Of a stretch of 64,000 nt of DNA, positions 29,544-62,183 are shown in pieces. This DNA comes from a virus (Duplodnaviria; Caudoviricetes), in the IMG/VR virus record IMGVR_UViG_3300028485_000001, positions 1-64,000 of that record. One strand, written 5' to 3'. How positions within the stretch are numbered: the first letter of the stretch is position 1; every line of letters starts with the position of its first letter. The notes beneath the pieces are model-generated. The model did not search any database. It was not told the origin of the DNA and saw only the letters and a list, made by a program, of their open reading frames with translations. Both the position numbers and the translations under genes were made by a program.

Positions 29544-30907
29544 TGACGGTTCACGACATCACCCCCCGCATTCCGCAGGACGACTCGACTCCGCCGCACG
29601 ACGTCGGTGCCGAGCAGATCGTCCTCGGCGCGGCCATCCTCGACTCCCGGGTCCTGCGGGACCTGGGCGACCTGATCACCCCGATGGACCTGTACCGACC
29701 CGCGCACCAGGTCATCTTGGAGACCGTCATGGGCATGGCGGACCTGGGTTTGCCGATCGAGCCGGTGGCGGTGCACCGGGAGCTGGTGAAGCGCAAGCAG
29801 GCCACCGCGGTCGGCGGCGCACCGTACCTGTACGAGCTTGTGGACAAGGTCCCGACGGTACAGAACGCGACCTGGTACGCGAAGGTCGTCGCGGACCTGT
29901 CGTTCCAGAGGCGCCTGATCGAGGCGGGCACGCGGATCGCTCAGATCGGCTGGGAGGGCGAGGGCGAGCCGACCGTCCTTGCAGAGGTCGCCGACGAGGC
30001 TCTGCGGTCTGCGGTTGCCGCCGGCGCGACGGGGGAGCCGGACACACAGCTCCTCGGAGACGACGCGGAGTTCATCGACGCGCTGGAGAAGCCGCTGTCG
30101 ACGGAGAACATGGTGCCCGCTCCCTATGTCGACCTTGGCGAGCGGATCGGCGGAGGGTTCAAGCCGGGGCAGCTGATCTGCATCGCCGGTCGGACCGGTG
30201 GCGGCAAGTCCGTGGTGGGTCTGGACATCGCCCGACACGCGGGGATCCGCCATCGGATGCCAACCCTGTACATCAGCCTGGAGATGCCCGCTGACCAGAT
30301 CCGGGAGCGCATCTACGCCGCCGAGGCGAAGGTCCCGGGGAAGCGCATCACCGACCACGAGCTCACGGACGAGGACTGGTCGAAGATCGCAAAGGTGCGG
30401 CCCGCGATCAACGCCGCGCCGATCTGGGTGGCTGCGCCGGCGCAGTGCACGCTCAACATGGTCAGGCAGCGCCTTCAGGCGATGGAGCGCAAGGGCCACA
30501 AGCCGCGGCTCCTGGTGGTCGACCACGTGGGCCTGATGTCCTCGACCGGGAAGAACGAGTCCCGCTACACCGAGGTCAGTGCCTACGCCCGCGGGTTGAA
30601 GCTGATCGCGATGGAGTTCAAGATCCCCGTGGTCATGCTCTGCCAGGTGAACAGGTCGGTGGGCCAGCGCCCGGACGCGATCCCGCGGGTGTCGGACCTG
30701 CGCGACTCCGGCGAGCTGGAGCAGTCCTCCGACCTGGTGGCGATGGTGCACCTGCCGGACTACGACGTGAAGGACAAGGCCGAGGGGCACGAACGCGCCG
30801 GCGAGGTCGACCTGTACCTCGCGAAGAACCGCAGTGGTCCGACCGCTGTCGTGACGCTGTCGGCTCAGTTGCACTACTCGCGCTTCGCCGACATGGCGCA
30901 GGGGTGA
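29543..30907 (+). CDS. dnaB: DnaB-like replicative helicase
   Basis: AGRTGGGKS, SLEM, VVDH, Q..R, LRDSGELEQ..D and AKNRSGP. Confidence 0.95.
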   Translation: MTVHDITPRIPQDDSTPPHDVGAEQIVLGAAILDSRVLRDLGDLITPMDLYRPAHQVILETVMGMADLGLPIEPVAVHRELVKRKQATAVGGAPYLYELVDKVPTVQNATWYAKVVADLSFQRRLIEAGTRIAQIGWEGEGEPTVLAEVADEALRSAVAAGATGEPDTQLLGDDAEFIDALEKPLSTENMVPAPYVDLGERIGGGFKPGQLICIAGRTGGGKSVVGLDIARHAGIRHRMPTLYISLEMPADQIRERIYAAEAKVPGKRITDHELTDEDWSKIAKVRPAINAAPIWVAAPAQCTLNMVRQRLQAMERKGHKPRLLVVDHVGLMSSTGKNESRYTEVSAYARGLKLIAMEFKIPVVMLCQVNRSVGQRPDAIPRVSDLRDSGELEQSSDLVAMVHLPDYDVKDKAEGHERAGEVDLYLAKNRSGPTAVVTLSAQLHYSRFADMAQG

Positions 30908-32022
30908 TGGGGATGCCCCTGACGATCGGCTCCCTCTGCTCTGGCTATGAGGGCCTGGGCATGTCTGTCCAGTCCGTCCTCGACGCCGAACTCGCGTGGG
31001 TCGCGGACCCCGATCCGGGCGCGGCGAAGATCCTCGCCCACCACCACCCCGACGTGCCCAACCTCGGCGACATCACTCAGACCGACTGGTCGACCGTGCC
31101 CCCCGTCGACATCTTGACCGCCGGGTTCCCGTGCCAGGACATCAGCAACGCCGGCAAGCGCGCCGGGATCGAAGGAGAACGAAGTGGGATCTGGTCGAAC
31201 GTCGCCGACGCCATTCGCGTACTACGACCCCGAGTCGTCTTCCTGGAGAACGTCTCAGCCGTCGTTGTTCGGGGGCTCGACCGAGTTGTCTCCGACCTGG
31301 CCGCGGTCGGGTATGACGCGAGCTGGATGTGCCTACGAGCTTCCGACGTCGGCGCTCCGCACCGTCGAGAGCGCTGGTTCTGCGTCGCCTGGCCTGCCGA
31401 CGCCGCGGGCCCGCGACTCGAAGGGGCGGGGGTTCTCGGACGGGTTGCCGAACGTCGTGGAGGACTTGCTGCCGACGCCGACCACCTCGGAGGCCACTGG
31501 GGCGGGGGCGCCGGATGGGAACCGCAACGACACGCTGCGGGCGCGGGTGCGGCTCTTGCCCACGCCGACGGCGACGCCCTACGGCAACAACCAGTCGCCG
31601 TCGGCGGGCGCGGCGGTGCGTCCGTCACTGAACTCCCTGGCAGCGGATGGGGCACTCTTGCCGACCCCACGGGCGTCGGACACGGGCACCCCCGGCCGCC
31701 GGGCCTCGGAGGGGTTCCGGCCGCCACTGTCGGAAGTGATCTTGCGTGGGGCGCGTACTCAGGGGCGATCCGCCGCTGGGAGCACGTCACCGGACGTCCT
31801 GCCCCTGTTCCCACTGAGCCCGGACGAAACGGACAGCCCCGCCTGAGCCCCGTCTTCGTCGAGTGGTTGATGGGTCTGCCCTTGGGATGGGTGACGGCGC
31901 CGGAGATCGGGCTCACCCGAACCCGGCAGCTTCACGCCTTGGGCAACGGCGTGGTCCCGCAGCAGGGGTCTCACGCTCTCCGTCTCCTCCTGGAGCGCGT
32001 GACCGCCGACGTGGCCGCATAG
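30907..32022 (+). CDS. DNA cytosine-5 methyltransferase
   Basis: LCSGYEG, GFPCQD, ENV, HRRERWF, EWLMGLP and GNGV. Confidence 0.92.
   Translation: MGMPLTIGSLCSGYEGLGMSVQSVLDAELAWVADPDPGAAKILAHHHPDVPNLGDITQTDWSTVPPVDILTAGFPCQDISNAGKRAGIEGERSGIWSNVADAIRVLRPRVVFLENVSAVVVRGLDRVVSDLAAVGYDASWMCLRASDVGAPHRRERWFCVAWPADAAGPRLEGAGVLGRVAERRGGLAADADHLGGHWGGGAGWEPQRHAAGAGAALAHADGDALRQQPVAVGGRGGASVTELPGSGWGTLADPTGVGHGHPRPPGLGGVPAATVGSDLAWGAYSGAIRRWEHVTGRPAPVPTEPGRNGQPRLSPVFVEWLMGLPLGWVTAPEIGLTRTRQLHALGNGVVPQQGSHALRLLLERVTADVAA
31184..31846 (+). CDS. Nested alternative-frame ORF inside the methyltransferase with four LPTP repeats
   Basis: AGGAG at 31173-31177 before GTG; YDPESSSWRTSQ...WPRSGM; LPTP-x-A-x-D-like repeats. 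Confidence 0.65.
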   Translation: MGSGRTSPTPFAYYDPESSSWRTSQPSLFGGSTELSPTWPRSGMTRAGCAYELPTSALRTVESAGSASPGLPTPRARDSKGRGFSDGLPNVVEDLLPTPTTSEATGAGAPDGNRNDTLRARVRLLPTPTATPYGNNQSPSAGAAVRPSLNSLAADGALLPTPRASDTGTPGRRASEGFRPPLSEVILRGARTQGRSAAGSTSPDVLPLFPLSPDETDSPA

Positions 32023-56771: not shown

Positions 56772-57611
56772 CTAGAGGAGGTGGTTCAGGCGCCCGTCAG
56801 CGTGCGCCTTCGCGATCTCGTCCGGGGACATGGATTCGAGCTGCTCACGTGTGATCGGCTTGGAGCCGCCGGGGGAGTTGAACTCGCCGCCGGAACGCTT
56901 GGGAGCAGGGGGCTTGGGCGGATCCGCTGGCGCGGGCGCCTTCGCCTTGAAGCGGTCGTTGGCTTCCACCTGGTCGGTGATGGCCTTGCTCAGCCGGTCG
57001 TTGAAGTCCGCGGCGGTGGGGTCCAGCCCCTCTGCGGCGCGCATGAACGAACGGGAGTCGAGCAGTAGGTCGGCGCGCGCTTCGTGTGCGCCTGCCGCGT
57101 GGTACACCGCGAGTTCGACCTGGCCGCGCCGCGCTTCCGCCTGGGAGGCTGCGAGCTTCCGGGTGAGTTCGTCGGGGTCGGGAGGGGTGTCTTCCTGCTT
57201 GAGGCCCAGCGCCTTGGCGATGGCGTCCATCTGTGCCTGCTGGCGCTTCTCGGAGGCGTCGAGCTTGTCCTCCAGCTCCTTCGCGGTGGTCCGCCTCTCG
57301 GCGGCCTCCTCGCGGAGCTTCTTGACGTAGTCCTCACCGAAGGTCTTGGGCTCCGGGCCCTTGCCCTTCGACTCGGCGTCGCCCTTGGACTCCTGGGGCA
57401 GGTGGTCGCCACTGGGAGCCGCCGGGGGCTGAGCGCTGCCGCCGTCTCCGCCCTGTGGAGTGCCGCCGGGGGCCGGGTCGCCGTCGGGGGCGCTCGGCTT
57501 GGGGTCGGGGTTCGGGTCGCCTTCGCCGGATCCACCCGCGATCAGGTGGATCGGTCGGCCGTCCTTGCGGTAGCCGATGAGGGACCCGGGGGTAGAGGTC
57601 GAATGCATCAT
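56772..57611 (-). CDS. Capsid scaffolding protein
   Basis: YV..LR.E.A..R coiled coil; between portal and capsid; N-terminal GYRKDGRPIHLIAGG. Confidence 0.85.
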   Translation of the reverse strand: MMHSTSTPGSLIGYRKDGRPIHLIAGGSGEGDPNPDPKPSAPDGDPAPGGTPQGGDGGSAQPPAAPSGDHLPQESKGDAESKGKGPEPKTFGEDYVKKLREEAAERRTTAKELEDKLDASEKRQQAQMDAIAKALGLKQEDTPPDPDELTRKLAASQAEARRGQVELAVYHAAGAHEARADLLLDSRSFMRAAEGLDPTAADFNDRLSKAITDQVEANDRFKAKAPAPADPPKPPAPKRSGGEFNSPGGSKPITREQLESMSPDEIAKAHADGRLNHLL

Positions 57612-59257
57612 GAGGAGCCCTCCCGGGGCTTCTTGGTGGAATCCGGCTCCTGGCCGGACGTGGATCCACCCGCCACCACACGGGGGCGGGAAGTCTGATC
57701 GCCGTGTTCCTCGGCATTGGCGGCGTCACCGGACACCATGAGCTGCGCCCACGCGTCGCCTTGCCGGGCCAGCTCCTGGTCCTCGGCGGACAGGCGCACC
57801 AGCTCGGCCTTGACGTCGGTCTCGGACGCGTTCGGGCCCAAGAACATCTGCACCAACGTCTCCCGCGACGCCATACGCGCATCAGCCATGAGCTTCACGG
57901 TCTCCGCGATCTGCCGCGTGTCGCGGGTCGCCGCATCCGGGAACATCACCTGCGGACGCTGCGGAACGAGCCCCTGCGCGTCGAAGATCTCCACGTCCAG
58001 GTGCAGGAGCGCCTCGGAGAGCTGGGCGATGCCGGGCCGCCAGTACAGGACCTTGTCGCCGCGAGTCGCCAGGGAGCGTTCCTTGCGCGAGTTGATCTCC
58101 GTCGCGGTCGCGGGTCCGCCGTCGGCGTCCATGGCCAACGATTCGAGGCTGTACCCGGCGCTGCGGACGATCTGCTTCGTCAGCGCCTGCGCCGTCGCCT
58201 CATGCTCGGCGTACCGGATCGCGAACTGCACCTGCTCGATCCGACCCGAGGTGCCGTCATCCACGGGGATGTTCAGCGGCGAGAACAACTCCTGCTCGGA
58301 GTTGAATGCCGCGCCCTGGCCGCGGCCCTGCGAGCGCAGATACGACTGCGGAACCACCAGGCGGGCCTTGCCCAAGCGGATGTCGCGCATCCACGACGAC
58401 CACGTCTCATCAAGGGCATCCAGCTCCCCCTCACACCCGGCGATGTCCGCCCGGCCAAGATTCGCGGCCTGCGGCAGATGCCTCCACACCCGGTTCGGGC
58501 GCATGTTCGGGATGTACGCCGCCGTCAACGGCACCGCGCCGGACAAGGCGACGTGGTCGCCGTCCGTCAGCAGATCAGCGAGCGCTCGGGTGTCGTCCAC
58601 CTCCGTCAGCGGGACCGTCATACCGAGGTCGTCACGGGTCCCACGGTGCAGACTGTGGCGGATGAAACCCCGCTCGTGGCGCTCCAGATGGCGGAACACC
58701 GTCCCCTGGTCCTCCACGACCACCCGGTGGAACGTCACCGCACGCAGACGGTCATACGACCACTCCGGGATCGCGGCATCGGCGTGCACAGCGGCGATCC
58801 ACGGCCGGTCAGCCACATCCTCATCCCACACCGTGCGCAGGAACACCCCACCGAGGGCGCCACCGAGCTCCGCACCCTCGCGCAGGCCGGCGAGCATCGA
58901 GTCGTCCATGTACTCGGCCAGGCGCTCATCCGTGGCCTTGTGGCCGGTGGTGATCCGCGGCGGCGACGAGAACAGCAAGGACGCGCCGACGCCGGCGATG
59001 TCAGAGGCGAGGGGGATGTGCAGGCGTGCGGGCCGCTGCTCAGCGGGAGTGTCCGTGCCCCAGAACCACCGGTAGATCGAGTGCGCGATCCTGCCGCGGC
59101 CGGGGTTGTGGTTGTCGGAGAACCCGGGGGAGCGCCCGTGCGCGCCCCCGTACACGGCGGCGAGGTCGTCGGGGTCACCGGAGTACCAGGCAGACCAGAT
59201 GGCCTGCCGGTCGAGGATGGGACGCAGGTTCTCCGGGGGCCACTGGGTGACGGACAC
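57608..59257 (-). CDS. Portal protein
   Basis: WPP N-terminus; WYSGD...L; LH.P.A.DI; position after terL. Confidence 0.9.
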   Translation of the reverse strand: MSVTQWPPENLRPILDRQAIWSAWYSGDPDDLAAVYGGAHGRSPGFSDNHNPGRGRIAHSIYRWFWGTDTPAEQRPARLHIPLASDIAGVGASLLFSSPPRITTGHKATDERLAEYMDDSMLAGLREGAELGGALGGVFLRTVWDEDVADRPWIAAVHADAAIPEWSYDRLRAVTFHRVVVEDQGTVFRHLERHERGFIRHSLHRGTRDDLGMTVPLTEVDDTRALADLLTDGDHVALSGAVPLTAAYIPNMRPNRVWRHLPQAANLGRADIAGCEGELDALDETWSSWMRDIRLGKARLVVPQSYLRSQGRGQGAAFNSEQELFSPLNIPVDDGTSGRIEQVQFAIRYAEHEATAQALTKQIVRSAGYSLESLAMDADGGPATATEINSRKERSLATRGDKVLYWRPGIAQLSEALLHLDVEIFDAQGLVPQRPQVMFPDAATRDTRQIAETVKLMADARMASRETLVQMFLGPNASETDVKAELVRLSAEDQELARQGDAWAQLMVSGDAANAEEHGDQTSRPRVVAGGSTSGQEPDSTKKPREGSS

Positions 59258-59339
59258 GAAACCCCCTCAGTTCACGGTGTGTAGTTGTATGAGCAGGGAC
59301 GACAGAACACCGCAGTCGGTGATGGTCACGGAACGCAAA

Positions 59340-59365
59340 CAAGGCGGGGTGGTGGCCCCGCCTTG
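59340..59365 (-). terminator. Hairpin between terL and portal
   Basis: CAAGGCGGGG-N6-CCCCGCCTTG; TTTGCGTT follows on the minus strand. Confidence 0.7.
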
Positions 59366-59375
59366 CTCGAATGCT

Positions 59376-61634
59376 TCAGATGGTCAGGTCATGGACGGGA
59401 TCACGCAGGTCCCACCGCCACTCGTGATACGTCGTCTTGATCCCGTAACGGAGGGAATCGCAGTTGTGGACGAGCACTCCGCTCGCGAAATACTCCGGGC
59501 AGTCAGCGACCGTGATGTTCCAAACGGGATGACGCCCTGGCACTTCGGTCACGGCGAGCACACGAACGCCCGCAATACCGAGTTCGGCTGTACTTGTTGG
59601 CATGGAACGTGTCCCCGCAGAAACCGCACTCCCGAGGGACGTCATCGACACCAGAGGCTCGGCGCCACGCTGATTTGCAGGCGTTCGAGCAGAACCGATC
59701 CTCCGGGCCTCGGGATCGGGTGCTGTAGTTCGTTGAACACTGGTCGCAGGTCTTGGTGATGGCCTCGCGGCCTTCCCAAGTCCGCTTCCCGTGTTCGGAG
59801 TGCCATGCCCGTCCGGCGTCAGAACGGTGCCACGCGGAGGCCAGTGGTCGAACGCTGTCCAAGTGGGCGAGCCGCCACGGGGTTCGGTAGTCGGTGAGCC
59901 TGGCGTGGTGTGCCAGGTGTTCGTCTGCGGTGATGCACACGAGGTTGCCCGGGGCGTTGTTGTTGTGGTCTCCGTCGGAGTGGTGGATGTGATGGCCCTC
60001 AGGAATGGATTTCCCGTGAGTGTGCATCCAGATCTCTTCGTGGAGACGCTTGACGCCTCGCTGGCGGTCTCCGATTCCGGGCGTGTAGTAACGCTGCTCG
60101 GAAAGGCCCTTGGCGTCTGGGTATCGGCGGAACTTGACTCCGTTGAAAACGATGACTTCGACACGCTTTCCCATGCCACCATTTTATCCGCGTACCGGAG
60201 TGAATCCAGACGAATCCACCCTTCCCCGTCAACCCAGACAGGATGATTCCCGGTCCCGATGAACTCCCGCCCATTCGACAGCTCAACCCGTAAAACCTTC
60301 GCTGAGGCGCTAGAAAGCCCGGAATCGTCCACGGCCTTCCAGCCATCCCGAGTCAGCACCCGGTCGCCAGGGCGAACGTCCTCGATGGGACGCTCTCCGC
60401 CTTCAGTCAAGACCGGAGTCCCAGCGACGAAGCAGGCATGGTCAGCTTCCTTGACCGGGGCGTCCTCGCCCTTCGCCGTGGCCTTCTCGTCCCACGAGTA
60501 CGACGGCATCTCATCGATCAGGTGCGTGCACGAGGCGTGGATCTTCAACTGGCCACCAGCGAGCAACGACGACACCAGCCGGATCCCATCCGCGACGCTG
60601 TTGTCCCCCTTGCGAGGATCCAGGCCGTCATCGTGGAGCTGCGTCCACATCGACGCCGCGGACGGGTCGATGACCGTCCACTCGGGATGCACACCCACGC
60701 CCCCCGTGCCCGGGACAGGCACGTTGCCGAGCCACTCCCGCAGGTACTCCGAGTACAGGACGTCGGTCAACTGGCGCTTCTTCGCCCGCGCGTCCCAACG
60801 CCACTCCGACGTGGCGTAAAGGATCCCGTCCGAGCCGAGGCCGAGCAGGGTCGCGTGGAAAGGATTCACGGTGCCGTAGTCAATTCCCAAGGCCACCCAA
60901 CGGCGGATCACCGGCAGGTCCGACACGATGTGCCAGTCCGGATCCCACACGTCGAACACGCTGCCTTCGCCAGCGATCCATTCCCCGGAAATAAAACGGC
61001 GATGCCAAAGACCCACATACTGGGCTTTCAGCCGCTCAGCGAACCCCTCCGGCAACCCCGGATTGTCGTCCAGGGTGAAATGCCAGTGCCGCATCCCGAT
61101 TTCGTCGGCGCGCAGTAGGTAGTCGCGGCGCAGCCAGTGTGCCGGAGCATCCGGGTTTGTCGTGGCCAGGAGCTTCGCGCCCTCGACGCGCAGCCGGGAC
61201 AGCATCATCGCCCAGAACCCCTGCGGGAGCAGAGTCGCCTCGTCGGCGTAGGCCAGGCAGATCGTCGACCCGCGAATCCGACCCTCGGAGCGGGCGTCGT
61301 TCGCACCCACCAGGTGCACCGTCCGCCCCAAGATCGACGCCGTCGTGCTGCCCTTGGTGTGGTGGATGTGCTTGGTCAGGTCACCGAACAGCCGCTCATC
61401 CTGCAACACGTCGATCAAGTTCCGCTCGATCGTCTGCAACGTGCGGCCGCACATGACGATCAGGCCAGTACGAGGAGCGCGCGCCACCAGGATGAGAAAC
61501 GCCAACAGCGACGCGACGGTCTTGCCCGACGCGACCGCACCTGACCACAACGCGATCTGAGGAGTCTCCAGAGCACCAGCGATCGACCGAACTTGGATCG
61601 GCGACATAACCGGAGAGAGCCGAGACAGATCCAC
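59376..61634 (-). CDS. terL: Terminase large subunit (PBSX-like) with intein
   Basis: GAVASGKT, YADE, TTNP, GIDYG..NP; spliced junction restores DHA-CDSLRY. Confidence 0.95.
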   Translation of the reverse strand: MDLSRLSPVMSPIQVRSIAGALETPQIALWSGAVASGKTVASLLAFLILVARAPRTGLIVMCGRTLQTIERNLIDVLQDERLFGDLTKHIHHTKGSTTASILGRTVHLVGANDARSEGRIRGSTICLAYADEATLLPQGFWAMMLSRLRVEGAKLLATTNPDAPAHWLRRDYLLRADEIGMRHWHFTLDDNPGLPEGFAERLKAQYVGLWHRRFISGEWIAGEGSVFDVWDPDWHIVSDLPVIRRWVALGIDYGTVNPFHATLLGLGSDGILYATSEWRWDARAKKRQLTDVLYSEYLREWLGNVPVPGTGGVGVHPEWTVIDPSAASMWTQLHDDGLDPRKGDNSVADGIRLVSSLLAGGQLKIHASCTHLIDEMPSYSWDEKATAKGEDAPVKEADHACFVAGTPVLTEGGERPIEDVRPGDRVLTRDGWKAVDDSGLSSASAKVLRVELSNGREFIGTGNHPVWVDGEGWIRLDSLRYADKMVAWESVSKSSFSTESSSADTQTPRAFPSSVTTRPESETASEASSVSTKRSGCTLTGNPFLRAITSTTPTETTTTTPRATSCASPQTNTWHTTPGSPTTEPRGGSPTWTAFDHWPPRGTVLTPDGHGTPNTGSGLGKAARPSPRPATSVQRTTAPDPEARRIGSARTPANQRGAEPLVSMTSLGSAVSAGTRSMPTSTAELGIAGVRVLAVTEVPGRHPVWNITVADCPEYFASGVLVHNCDSLRYGIKTTYHEWRWDLRDPVHDLTI
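59503..60174 (-). CDS. HNH endonuclease with zinc fingers, out of frame inside the intein
   Basis: LHEEIW...IPEGHHIHHSDGDHNNNAPGNL; CDQC..FCSNAC; CGFC..YCGRSC. Confidence 0.85.
   Translation of the reverse strand: MGKRVEVIVFNGVKFRRYPDAKGLSEQRYYTPGIGDRQRGVKRLHEEIWMHTHGKSIPEGHHIHHSDGDHNNNAPGNLVCITADEHLAHHARLTDYRTPWRLAHLDSVRPLASAWHRSDAGRAWHSEHGKRTWEGREAITKTCDQCSTNYSTRSRGPEDRFCSNACKSAWRRASGVDDVPRECGFCGDTFHANKYSRTRYCGRSCARRDRSARASSRLEHHGR
60172..60186 (-). promoter_or_regulatory. Leaderless-type -10 for the nested HNH
   Basis: TAAAAT-GGTGGC-ATG on the minus strand. Confidence 0.6.
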
Positions 61635-61655
61635 CCGCCCACCCCCTCCCCGCGG

Positions 61656-62183
61656 TCATCCGTCGGACGGGGCGGACTCGACACCGTCCAAGGTCTGCGC
61701 GGCTTCGGAGAACACCGAACCGAGCCGGTCGAGCATGGACGCCGCATCCGAGGACGCCCCAGTAGTGTCGACCGCCGCGATCTTCAGATGCTTGTCGAGG
61801 GCCACCGCCGACGCGGTCATCAGGTTGCGGAGGTCACCCGTCGGCGCCCGTTCGAGCACGGCCTCGTTGTAGGTGTTCTCTTTGCCGCCGAACGAGAAGA
61901 CGAGGTGCGGGTCGTCCATCTGGTCCAAGAGCTGATGGGCTTTGCGGAGGTACTTCTCGGAGACCTCAGCTCGCAACGCGGCGAGGTCGGCCTGACGCGC
62001 ACGCGTGGCCTTTTCAGTACCCTCGCGCGACCATGCGTCGGTGATGCCGTTCTCCTTGGCGACCTTGCGGACCATGTTGTCGCTGACGTCGTGCCGCGCG
62101 GCTATGGCTCGTGTAGACCCGACTTTGGCTTGGATGTCAGCGAGGATCGCGGCGCGCTTCTCATCACTGATCCGTCTGACCAC
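61656..62183 (-). CDS. terS: Terminase small subunit
   Basis: N-terminal HTH TRAIAARHDVS..VRKVA; directly upstream of terL. Confidence 0.8.
   Translation of the reverse strand: MVRRISDEKRAAILADIQAKVGSTRAIAARHDVSDNMVRKVAKENGITDAWSREGTEKATRARQADLAALRAEVSEKYLRKAHQLLDQMDDPHLVFSFGGKENTYNEAVLERAPTGDLRNLMTASAVALDKHLKIAAVDTTGASSDAASMLDRLGSVFSEAAQTLDGVESAPSDG

Follow-up and report, generated by a model that had tools for sequence, protein, structure and literature searches.

Inteins with overlapping endonuclease genes

Inteins whose endonuclease is encoded in a reading frame other than that of the host protein have been described in actinophage large terminase (terL) genes and in the cyanobacterial dnaX gene, and related arrangements are known from a phage DNA methylase and from fractured genes. 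Here we compare with these systems a locus in the terL gene of IMG/VR virus record IMGVR_UViG_3300028485_000001. The window, as we call the whole stretch of DNA analysed, is the first 64 kb of this record of 85,359 bp and has a GC content of about 0.68. Its terL gene contains a 324-residue intein, and a gene for an HNH endonuclease was found to lie within the intein in the -1 frame. From comparison with homologous loci we consider it highly probable that the two form a composite selfish element, in which a terL mini-intein is combined with a separately expressed, overlapping HNH gene that has a homing role.

Gosselin, Arsenault and Gogarten reported 27 table rows labelled 'OOF ENDO VII' which, among the rows listed, are all terL inteins, and proposed that they originated by invasion of a free-standing endonuclease gene (bioRxiv 10.1101/2025.01.02.630785). 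These actinophage elements resemble the window in that terL is the host gene, the intein belongs to class 1, the endonuclease is in 'frame 3' and the host frame is open. A preliminary description of the locus, which knew of no terminase-intein case, was therefore overstated on this point. The two nevertheless differ in several respects. The OOF Endo VII nuclease is shorter and its intein comprises about 265 residues, whereas the window encodes a 223-residue HNH_3 protein with two zinc ribbons in a 324-residue intein. Pfam gave HNH_3 only and no Endonuclease_7 (IPR004211) match in the window open reading frame (ORF), which places it outside the OOF ENDO VII family, and no Gordonia or Mycobacterium phage with an OOF Endo VII intein was found among the tblastn matches to the window HNH protein. 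Supplementary Table 1 of the preprint lists no out-of-frame HNH, only 'OOF ENDO VII' entries and one in-frame HNH in phage Clown (bioRxiv 10.1101/2025.01.02.630785). The preprint describes actinophage terL genes and reports no expression signals, whereas the HNH family of the window reaches far beyond actinophages and carries Shine-Dalgarno (SD) or -10 signals.

The cyanobacterial dnaX intein contains an out-of-frame LAGLIDADG endonuclease (Gorbalenya 1998; Phillips et al., bioRxiv 10.64898/2026.09.14.751524), and the recent dnaX paper calls broadly distributed cases rare (bioRxiv 10.64898/2026.09.14.751524). As in the window, this intein is contiguous, with an overlapping endonuclease ORF under purifying selection and a relaxed linker in the host frame; its authors proposed a secondary invasion of a mini-intein. 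Unlike the window, it involves a cellular host gene and a LAGLIDADG enzyme. In mycobacteriophage ShiLan, a hidden out-of-frame HNH gene was reported in a DNA methylase (Arsenault et al. 2025, PMC11855218). There too the HNH gene occupies the third frame of an open host frame, and leaderless initiation was suggested for it, but the ShiLan insert has no intein splicing domains and stays in the host protein, and both the HNH family and the host gene are different.

In fractured genes the intein is split, and a free-standing gene for an endonuclease separates its two halves (Dassa et al. 2009, PMC2677866). The order of N-intein, endonuclease gene and C-intein is the same as in the window, and the best solved relative of the window intein, gp41-1, comes from that study. 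About 20 relatives of the window HNH family are split in this way, for example in Lactobacillus phage CL2. In the window, by contrast, the intein halves are joined by an open frame through the endonuclease gene. The nucleases of the fractured genes are GIY-YIG and Vsr-like enzymes and not HNH (PMC2677866).

The concept of an out-of-frame endonuclease intein is therefore not new, since the layout was first described in the 2025-26 preprints. In the full-text literature searched we found no description of an HNH_3/zinc-ribbon family nested in terL inteins, of its breadth or of an embedded promoter signal. What the present family adds is its breadth, the series of nested, split and free-standing forms, and the expression signals.

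The terL intein and the HNH gene within it

On the minus strand of the window, the 752-residue terL ORF (59376-61634) lies between a terS-like gene (61656-62183) and a portal gene (57608-59257). The parts of the terL ORF are as follows.

59376-61634, minus strand: terL precursor ORF of 752 amino acids, with N-extein, intein and C-extein in a single open frame (ORF list, Pfam)
60435-61634, minus strand: N-extein, terL residues 1-400, with the C-terminal end ...KEADHA (alignment with the intein-less ToastyFinz terL)
59463-60434, minus strand: class-1 intein of 324 amino acids, from Cys1 to His-Asn with a +1 Cys, at the DHx|CDxLRY site (sequence blocks, alignment)
60165-60434, minus strand: N-terminal splicing domain, about residues 1-90, with blocks A and B (TGNH) (match to gp41-1, 6QAZ)
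59583-60164, minus strand: read-through linker in the terL frame, about intein residues 91-284, of low complexity and stop-free (composition; no PDB match in the span)
59463-59582, minus strand: C-terminal splicing domain with blocks F and G, VLVHN (intein hidden Markov models (HMMs), PDB profile search)
59376-59462, minus strand: C-extein (CDSLRYGIKTTYHEWRWDLRDPVHDLTI plus stop) (alignment with ToastyFinz terL)

Pfam matches of the whole ORF were to Terminase_6N (E 2.8e-13), Hint_2 (34.1 bits; cut-off 28.4) and Intein_splicing. Residues 1-400 share 48-58% identity with the large terminases of Streptomyces phages, and megablast found no GenBank phage record near-identical to the window terL. 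The intein-less ToastyFinz terL reads ...DDHS-CDALRY..., and at this place the window has 324 residues between ...EADHA and CDSLRY....

The insert starts with CFVAGTPV, contains TGNH and finishes with VLVHN, and a +1 Cys follows. In an alignment of 40 inteins, Cys1 of CFVAGTPV, His64 of the block B TGNH and Asn324 at the C-terminus were observed to be invariant and Thr61 nearly so, while the +1 residue among relatives was Cys in 81, Ser in 10 and Thr in 1. A profile of the 40 inteins matches solved inteins in both the N and C parts, which together with the Hint_2 match establishes homology to the HINT fold; its best PDB match is the gp41-1 intein (6QAZ, E 3.4e-15). The matches to solved mini-inteins cover positions 1-100 and 286-324 only, with none between, and the linker in the window (residues 91-284, 194 amino acids) was found to be 73% S/T/P/R/G/A and 12% hydrophobic. 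Judged by these features the insert is a class-1 intein, for which protein splicing is predicted. One open frame spans the whole insert, so its halves are not on separate ORFs as they are in a split intein, and the window combines a contiguous intein ORF with an endonuclease in another frame, as is characteristic of out-of-frame endonuclease inteins.

The features of the nested gene are the following.

59503-60174, minus strand: nested HNH endonuclease gene, 223 amino acids plus TGA, ATG start, in the -1 frame of terL (ORF list, Pfam, alignments)
59914-60048, minus strand: HNH_3 catalytic core, HNH residues 43-87 (Pfam, alignments)
59560-59748, minus strand: two Cys4 zinc ribbons, C143/C146/C162/C166 and C183/C186/C201/C205 (conserved Cys columns)
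59503-59582, minus strand: dual-coding stretch, shared by the C-terminal tail of HNH and, in the C-terminal splicing domain, by block F and the first strands

The HNH gene starts at terL codon position 3, (61634-60174) mod 3 being 2. Pfam assigned its product to HNH_3 with 42.4 bits (cut-off 24.8; E 5.6e-11). Residues H62, H64, H65, D67, N72, N73, N77, H86 and H90 are invariant in an alignment of 5 HNH sequences; when 30 sequences were aligned, H64, H65, N73, N77, H86 and H90 remained invariant and H62, D67 and N72 were conserved in at least 90%. All eight cysteines of the zinc ribbons are invariant or nearly so across the HNH alignments. An AlphaFold2 model of the ORF has a mean predicted local distance difference test score (pLDDT) of 93.8, and in an exhaustive VIA-align search its top fold match was I-HmuI (PDB 1U3E; Z 6.8, rmsd 3.3, 78 residues aligned), with a score well ahead of the second-ranked entry; the fold matches also included I-PpoI, GVE2 and Gme HNH. 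The zinc ribbons resemble YacG-type zinc fingers in the structural search (Z 4.7). Foldseek of the model against PDB gave no match at E <= 0.001, and searching the PDB sequences with a profile of the HNH alignment gave none either. I-HmuI, from an intron of Bacillus phage SPO1, matches HNH residues 8-95 and both proteins belong to Pfam HNH_3, but the two share only 19% identity, and I-HmuI is intron-encoded with NUMOD and helix-turn-helix modules instead of zinc ribbons. The nested ORF is thus predicted to be an I-HmuI-like HNH_3 endonuclease with two C-terminal zinc ribbons.

The preliminary description had placed a 324-residue intein with blocks A, B, F and G in the terL nuclease motif, with an open Ser/Thr/Pro/Arg-rich middle region, and a 223-residue HNH protein with its own ATG and TGA and two Cys4 motifs in another frame at 59503-60174. 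The intein boundaries at 59463-60434 proved exact, and the linker composition, the ORF list, the HNH_3 match and the Cys columns agree with the remainder. It had also put the HNH stop inside block F and noticed dual coding at the 3' end. The stop at 59503-59505 does coincide with intein residues 310/311, and about 25 codons encode the HNH tail and at the same time the strands with which the C-terminal splicing domain begins. The HMM match to the C-terminal intein domain begins upstream of the HNH stop in all the nested loci described below.

Conservation of the two frames among relatives

When the HNH protein was searched by tblastn, homologues turned up under the annotated terL coding sequences (CDSs) of four deposited phages, namely Tetrasphaera phage TJE1, Acinetobacter phage Highwayman, Clostridium phage phiCDHM19 (GC 0.31) and a Rhodobacteraceae phage. 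In all four the HNH frame is offset by +2 from terL; of the other two frames, that of terL is open and the third is closed, even at a GC of 0.31. Streptomyces prophages with a 60-65% identical HNH protein have the same layout as the window. A census of IMG/VR and GTDB genomes added 160 further loci, giving about 170 homologous loci in all, which were classified with HMMs for the N-intein, C-intein and HNH on the three forward frames. A contiguous intein with the HNH gene in frame +2, the same offset as in the window, was observed in 114 of the ~170 loci. These nested loci span GC contents of 0.28-0.66, and the genome-derived ones carry labels from more than 15 phyla, including bacteria of the candidate phyla radiation (CPR) and archaeal metagenome-assembled genomes (MAGs). 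A single census locus has the HNH gene in frame +1. About 20 loci, mostly from Bacillota, are split in the order N-intein, stop, HNH gene and C-intein, and about 20 have a free-standing HNH gene with the intein halves not nearby.

The window is a single metagenome-derived viral contig, and two compensating indels could in principle mask an ordinary intein with an in-frame HNH domain. Such inteins do exist, as four census loci (L164, L167, L168 and L173) contain canonical inteins of about 425 amino acids with in-frame HNH_3 and NUMOD3; these are only distantly related but occupy the same terL site, so that in-frame and out-of-frame HNH inteins share the point of insertion. Compensating errors are nevertheless excluded because 114 independent loci, including the four separately sequenced phages and isolate genomes, have the same layout and offset. 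In addition, the HNH ORF is bounded by a start and a stop of its own, and free-standing homologues begin and end at the corresponding positions. We therefore attach practically no probability to a sequencing or assembly artefact.

The intein frame is conserved among the homologues in that all 114 nested loci are stop-free, whereas the free-standing homologues have a mean of 5.8 stops in the frame equivalent to that of terL and none of 15 is open. The third frame of the nested loci has a mean of 15.8 stops. For the 31 nested loci with GC below 0.40, shuffling of the HNH codons gave a probability of an open terL frame of about 0.01 each. The comparison between nested and free-standing copies shows that selection keeps the terL frame free of stops through the HNH gene.

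Among the actinobacterial relatives of the window, sequence pairs differ by 0.27, 0.26 and 0.47 at the first, second and third HNH codon positions, and over the same columns the HNH protein has 62% identity versus 44% for the peptide in the terL frame. The HNH frame is taken as the selected frame because substitutions concentrate at its third codon position; this pattern indicates that the HNH frame is under purifying selection, and that the terL frame over the linker is constrained mainly to remain open. According to the homing-cycle theory, an endonuclease decays once its element is fixed, and the HNH ORF might accordingly be a decaying, unexpressed relic across which only terL read-through matters. 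Degraded copies are indeed found in the family, such as the zinc-ribbon remnant in Brochothrix phage BL3. The copy in the window, however, is of full length with all catalytic and Cys residues present. The bias of substitutions to the third HNH position, the conserved starts with SD or -10 signals and the confident AlphaFold2 model also speak against decay, and a relic is in our view very unlikely.

Expression, mobility and role of the HNH gene

Expression signals were compared in 115 nested copies, that is, the 114 loci and the window. A start codon was observed at the family N-terminus (profile position ~1) in 113 of them, with ATG in 92, GTG in 19 and TTG in 2. An SD core precedes the HNH start in 47% of the nested copies compared with 12% of control positions. 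TANNNT stands exactly at -12 to -7 of the HNH start in 24 of 43 non-redundant high-GC nested loci (background 0.3%); a further 12 of these loci have an SD in its place, and a single one combines the two. The T of the hexamer is supplied by an Asp codon, for which 21 of 23 loci use GAT; over the rest of these terL genes GAT accounts for just 23% of Asp codons (P = 7e-12). The start context in the window is TAAAAT-N6-ATG, which includes the following feature.

60181-60186, minus strand: TAAAAT, a -10-like hexamer at -12 to -7 of the HNH ATG (A at 60174), candidate leaderless promoter (conservation among high-GC loci)

Leaderless genes of actinobacteria typically have a -10 hexamer at -12 to -7 of their ATG or GTG. 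Because TAAAAT-N6-ATG fits this geometry, we infer that the HNH gene is probably transcribed and translated independently of terL, from a leaderless mRNA in the high-GC loci. An independently made nuclease had already been proposed from the window alone, and the conserved starts, the SD or -10 signals, the purifying selection on the HNH frame and the N and C termini shared with free-standing homologues all point in the same direction.

The HNH domain could instead be produced by programmed -1 frameshifting, as a fusion of N-extein, N-intein and HNH without a start of its own. Such an origin would account for the -1 frame of HNH across the nested loci, and in TJE1 the HNH frame is open far upstream. 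The constant offset is, however, explained by common descent together with the need to keep terL in frame. An in-frame stop lies at a median of 7 codons upstream of the HNH start, and 3 codons upstream in the window, while the conserved start codons have SD or -10 signals. A canonical slippery heptamer was found in the gap in only 12 of the 115 loci and not in the window, and programmed frameshifting was rejected on this count; the probability that remains to it is very small.

The identity of the HNH proteins is nearly uncorrelated with that of the N-exteins (r = 0.20), and some pairs share 82% identity in HNH but 42% in the extein. The closest Streptomyces phage terL genes have neither insert nor HNH gene, and their DDHS-CDALRY site is intact. 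The family therefore shows the sporadic distribution and the incongruence with host-gene history that mark a homing element. In an unrooted FastTree phylogeny of HNH with modest support, the nested state occurs throughout with split and free-standing copies interspersed, and at least 21 state changes are needed; one Bacillota-rich clade is mostly split. The simplest reading of these comparisons is that a free-standing HNH gene targeting the 3' region of terL would have lodged in a mini-intein, and that the composite would later have been spread by homing and at times fractured or separated.

Individual loci illustrate the different states. Lactobacillus phage CL2 (L010, 506-2734) has a terL with a naturally split intein and the HNH gene between the halves, and in Brochothrix phage BL3 (L013, 727-2607) terL is split by an intein in which HNH is degraded to a zinc-ribbon remnant; the deposited annotations of both phages mention no intein. 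The HNH proteins of a Sodaliphilus MAG (L108) and a Prevotellaceae MAG (L109) are almost the same (branch lengths 0.10 and 0.05), yet one gene is nested in a contiguous intein and the other belongs to a split arrangement, which suggests a recent shift between the two states. In Exiguobacterium phage vB_EauM-23 (L011, 2201-3174), terL ends in ...DKNNHSMAA* and is followed by a 212-nucleotide non-coding gap and a member of the HNH family; beyond it the sequence continues with CDATRYAMEM... in a different frame. This may be an insertion of intron type, or a fractured one, at the terL site used in the window, although no Rfam intron family was found at the locus. In Pseudomonas phage PAE1 a free-standing member lies directly downstream of an intact terL.

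As a mechanism, we propose that the composite selfish element invaded the large terminase gene of an actinophage or prophage. Its first part would be the class-1 mini-intein, seated between DHA and CDSLRY of the C-terminal nuclease motif, and its second a complete HNH_3 gene of the free-standing type, placed at the usual position of an intein endonuclease but in the -1 frame. Ribosomes translating terL would pass through the HNH gene and produce a disordered Ser/Thr/Pro-rich linker of about 190 amino acids, around which the N and C halves of the intein would fold, and splicing would remove the whole insert and restore TerL. In the high-GC lineage HNH would be made from a leaderless mRNA, with the putative -10 element (TAAAAT-N6-ATG) lying within the intein codons for ...RYADKM..., and in low-GC relatives an SD site may serve the gene instead. 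During co-infection or prophage-phage encounters the HNH protein would nick or cut an intein-less terL near the DHx|CD site, and repair would copy the intein and the HNH gene together.

Several observations weigh against this reading. When the codons of the window HNH ORF were shuffled, the terL frame stayed open in 21% of trials (P = 0.21), so the open terL frame of the window alone is not statistically unusual in 64%-GC DNA. The census HMMs were built from 10 sequences, and 'nested' means zero stops by definition. The HNH start in the window has no SD and no recognisable -35, and a scan of 59300-61800 with the E. coli-type sigma-70 consensus gave no promoter. The promoter is also deduced from conservation among loci which are related by descent and are phylogenetically non-independent, and constraints on the intein protein could account for some of the hexamer, namely the T that forms the second position of a hydrophobic codon.

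Moreover, HNH genes next to terminase genes can serve packaging instead of homing: HNH nickases beside phage terminase genes are widespread and were proposed to aid packaging (PMC3592412). The nested protein might thus be an accessory packaging nuclease parked in an intein, and free-standing members of the family are in fact found directly beside terS or terL. Such a role is harder to reconcile with the patchy distribution of the family, with the absence of both intein and HNH from the closest Streptomyces phage terL genes and with the disagreement between HNH and extein histories. The HNH gene also occupies the canonical endonuclease position of an intein, and the best structural match of its product is a homing endonuclease. 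We consider a packaging nuclease in place of a homing enzyme unlikely, but the two roles are not mutually exclusive.

Beyond the composite element with a homing HNH gene, there is a broader joint reading on which we are evenly divided. These loci would constitute the largest and widest family yet of inteins with an overlapping, separately expressed endonuclease gene, with over 100 loci from viruses or prophages that are assigned to more than 15 phyla of bacteria and archaea; the nested, split and free states would have been interconverted repeatedly; and in high-GC members the intein codons would have been shaped, with GAT forced for Asp, into a -10 element for a leaderless endonuclease mRNA. 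If this is true, homing would be uncoupled from late-gene expression of terL, and the family would provide a natural series for the acquisition of endonucleases by inteins and for the rise of split inteins. Inteins with a separate-frame endonuclease, which have been described as rare, bear on the 'splicing first, endonuclease later' model, and here the nested arrangement is the majority state of the HNH family across very different hosts. Its nested, split and free-standing relatives would make the steps from capture to overlap to fracture directly comparable. The family may also serve as an example of long-term overlapping coding, in which about 200 codons are kept stop-free purely for translation of the downstream extein, and of regulatory signals written into the coding sequence of an intein.

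Gene callers were observed to be inconsistent at the nested loci, where either HNH is called and terL dropped or terL is called and HNH stays hidden. For the Streptomyces prophages L005 and L006, the NCBI annotation lists HNH as a normal gene and leaves terL uncalled, with a gap of about 1.45 kb. Elsewhere in the window, an ORF resembling a C5 DNA methyltransferase (30445-32022, plus strand) contains in another frame a 220-residue ORF (31184-31846, plus strand) with repeated LLPTP(T/R)A motifs and no Pfam match. This 220-residue ORF is matched in 199 actinophage records under annotated DNA methylase CDSs, and relative to the annotated CDS of Streptomyces phage Darolandstone the match is in frame +1. 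Judging from these matches, the contig has another conserved two-frame arrangement in 31184-31846 and the methyltransferase ORF around it.

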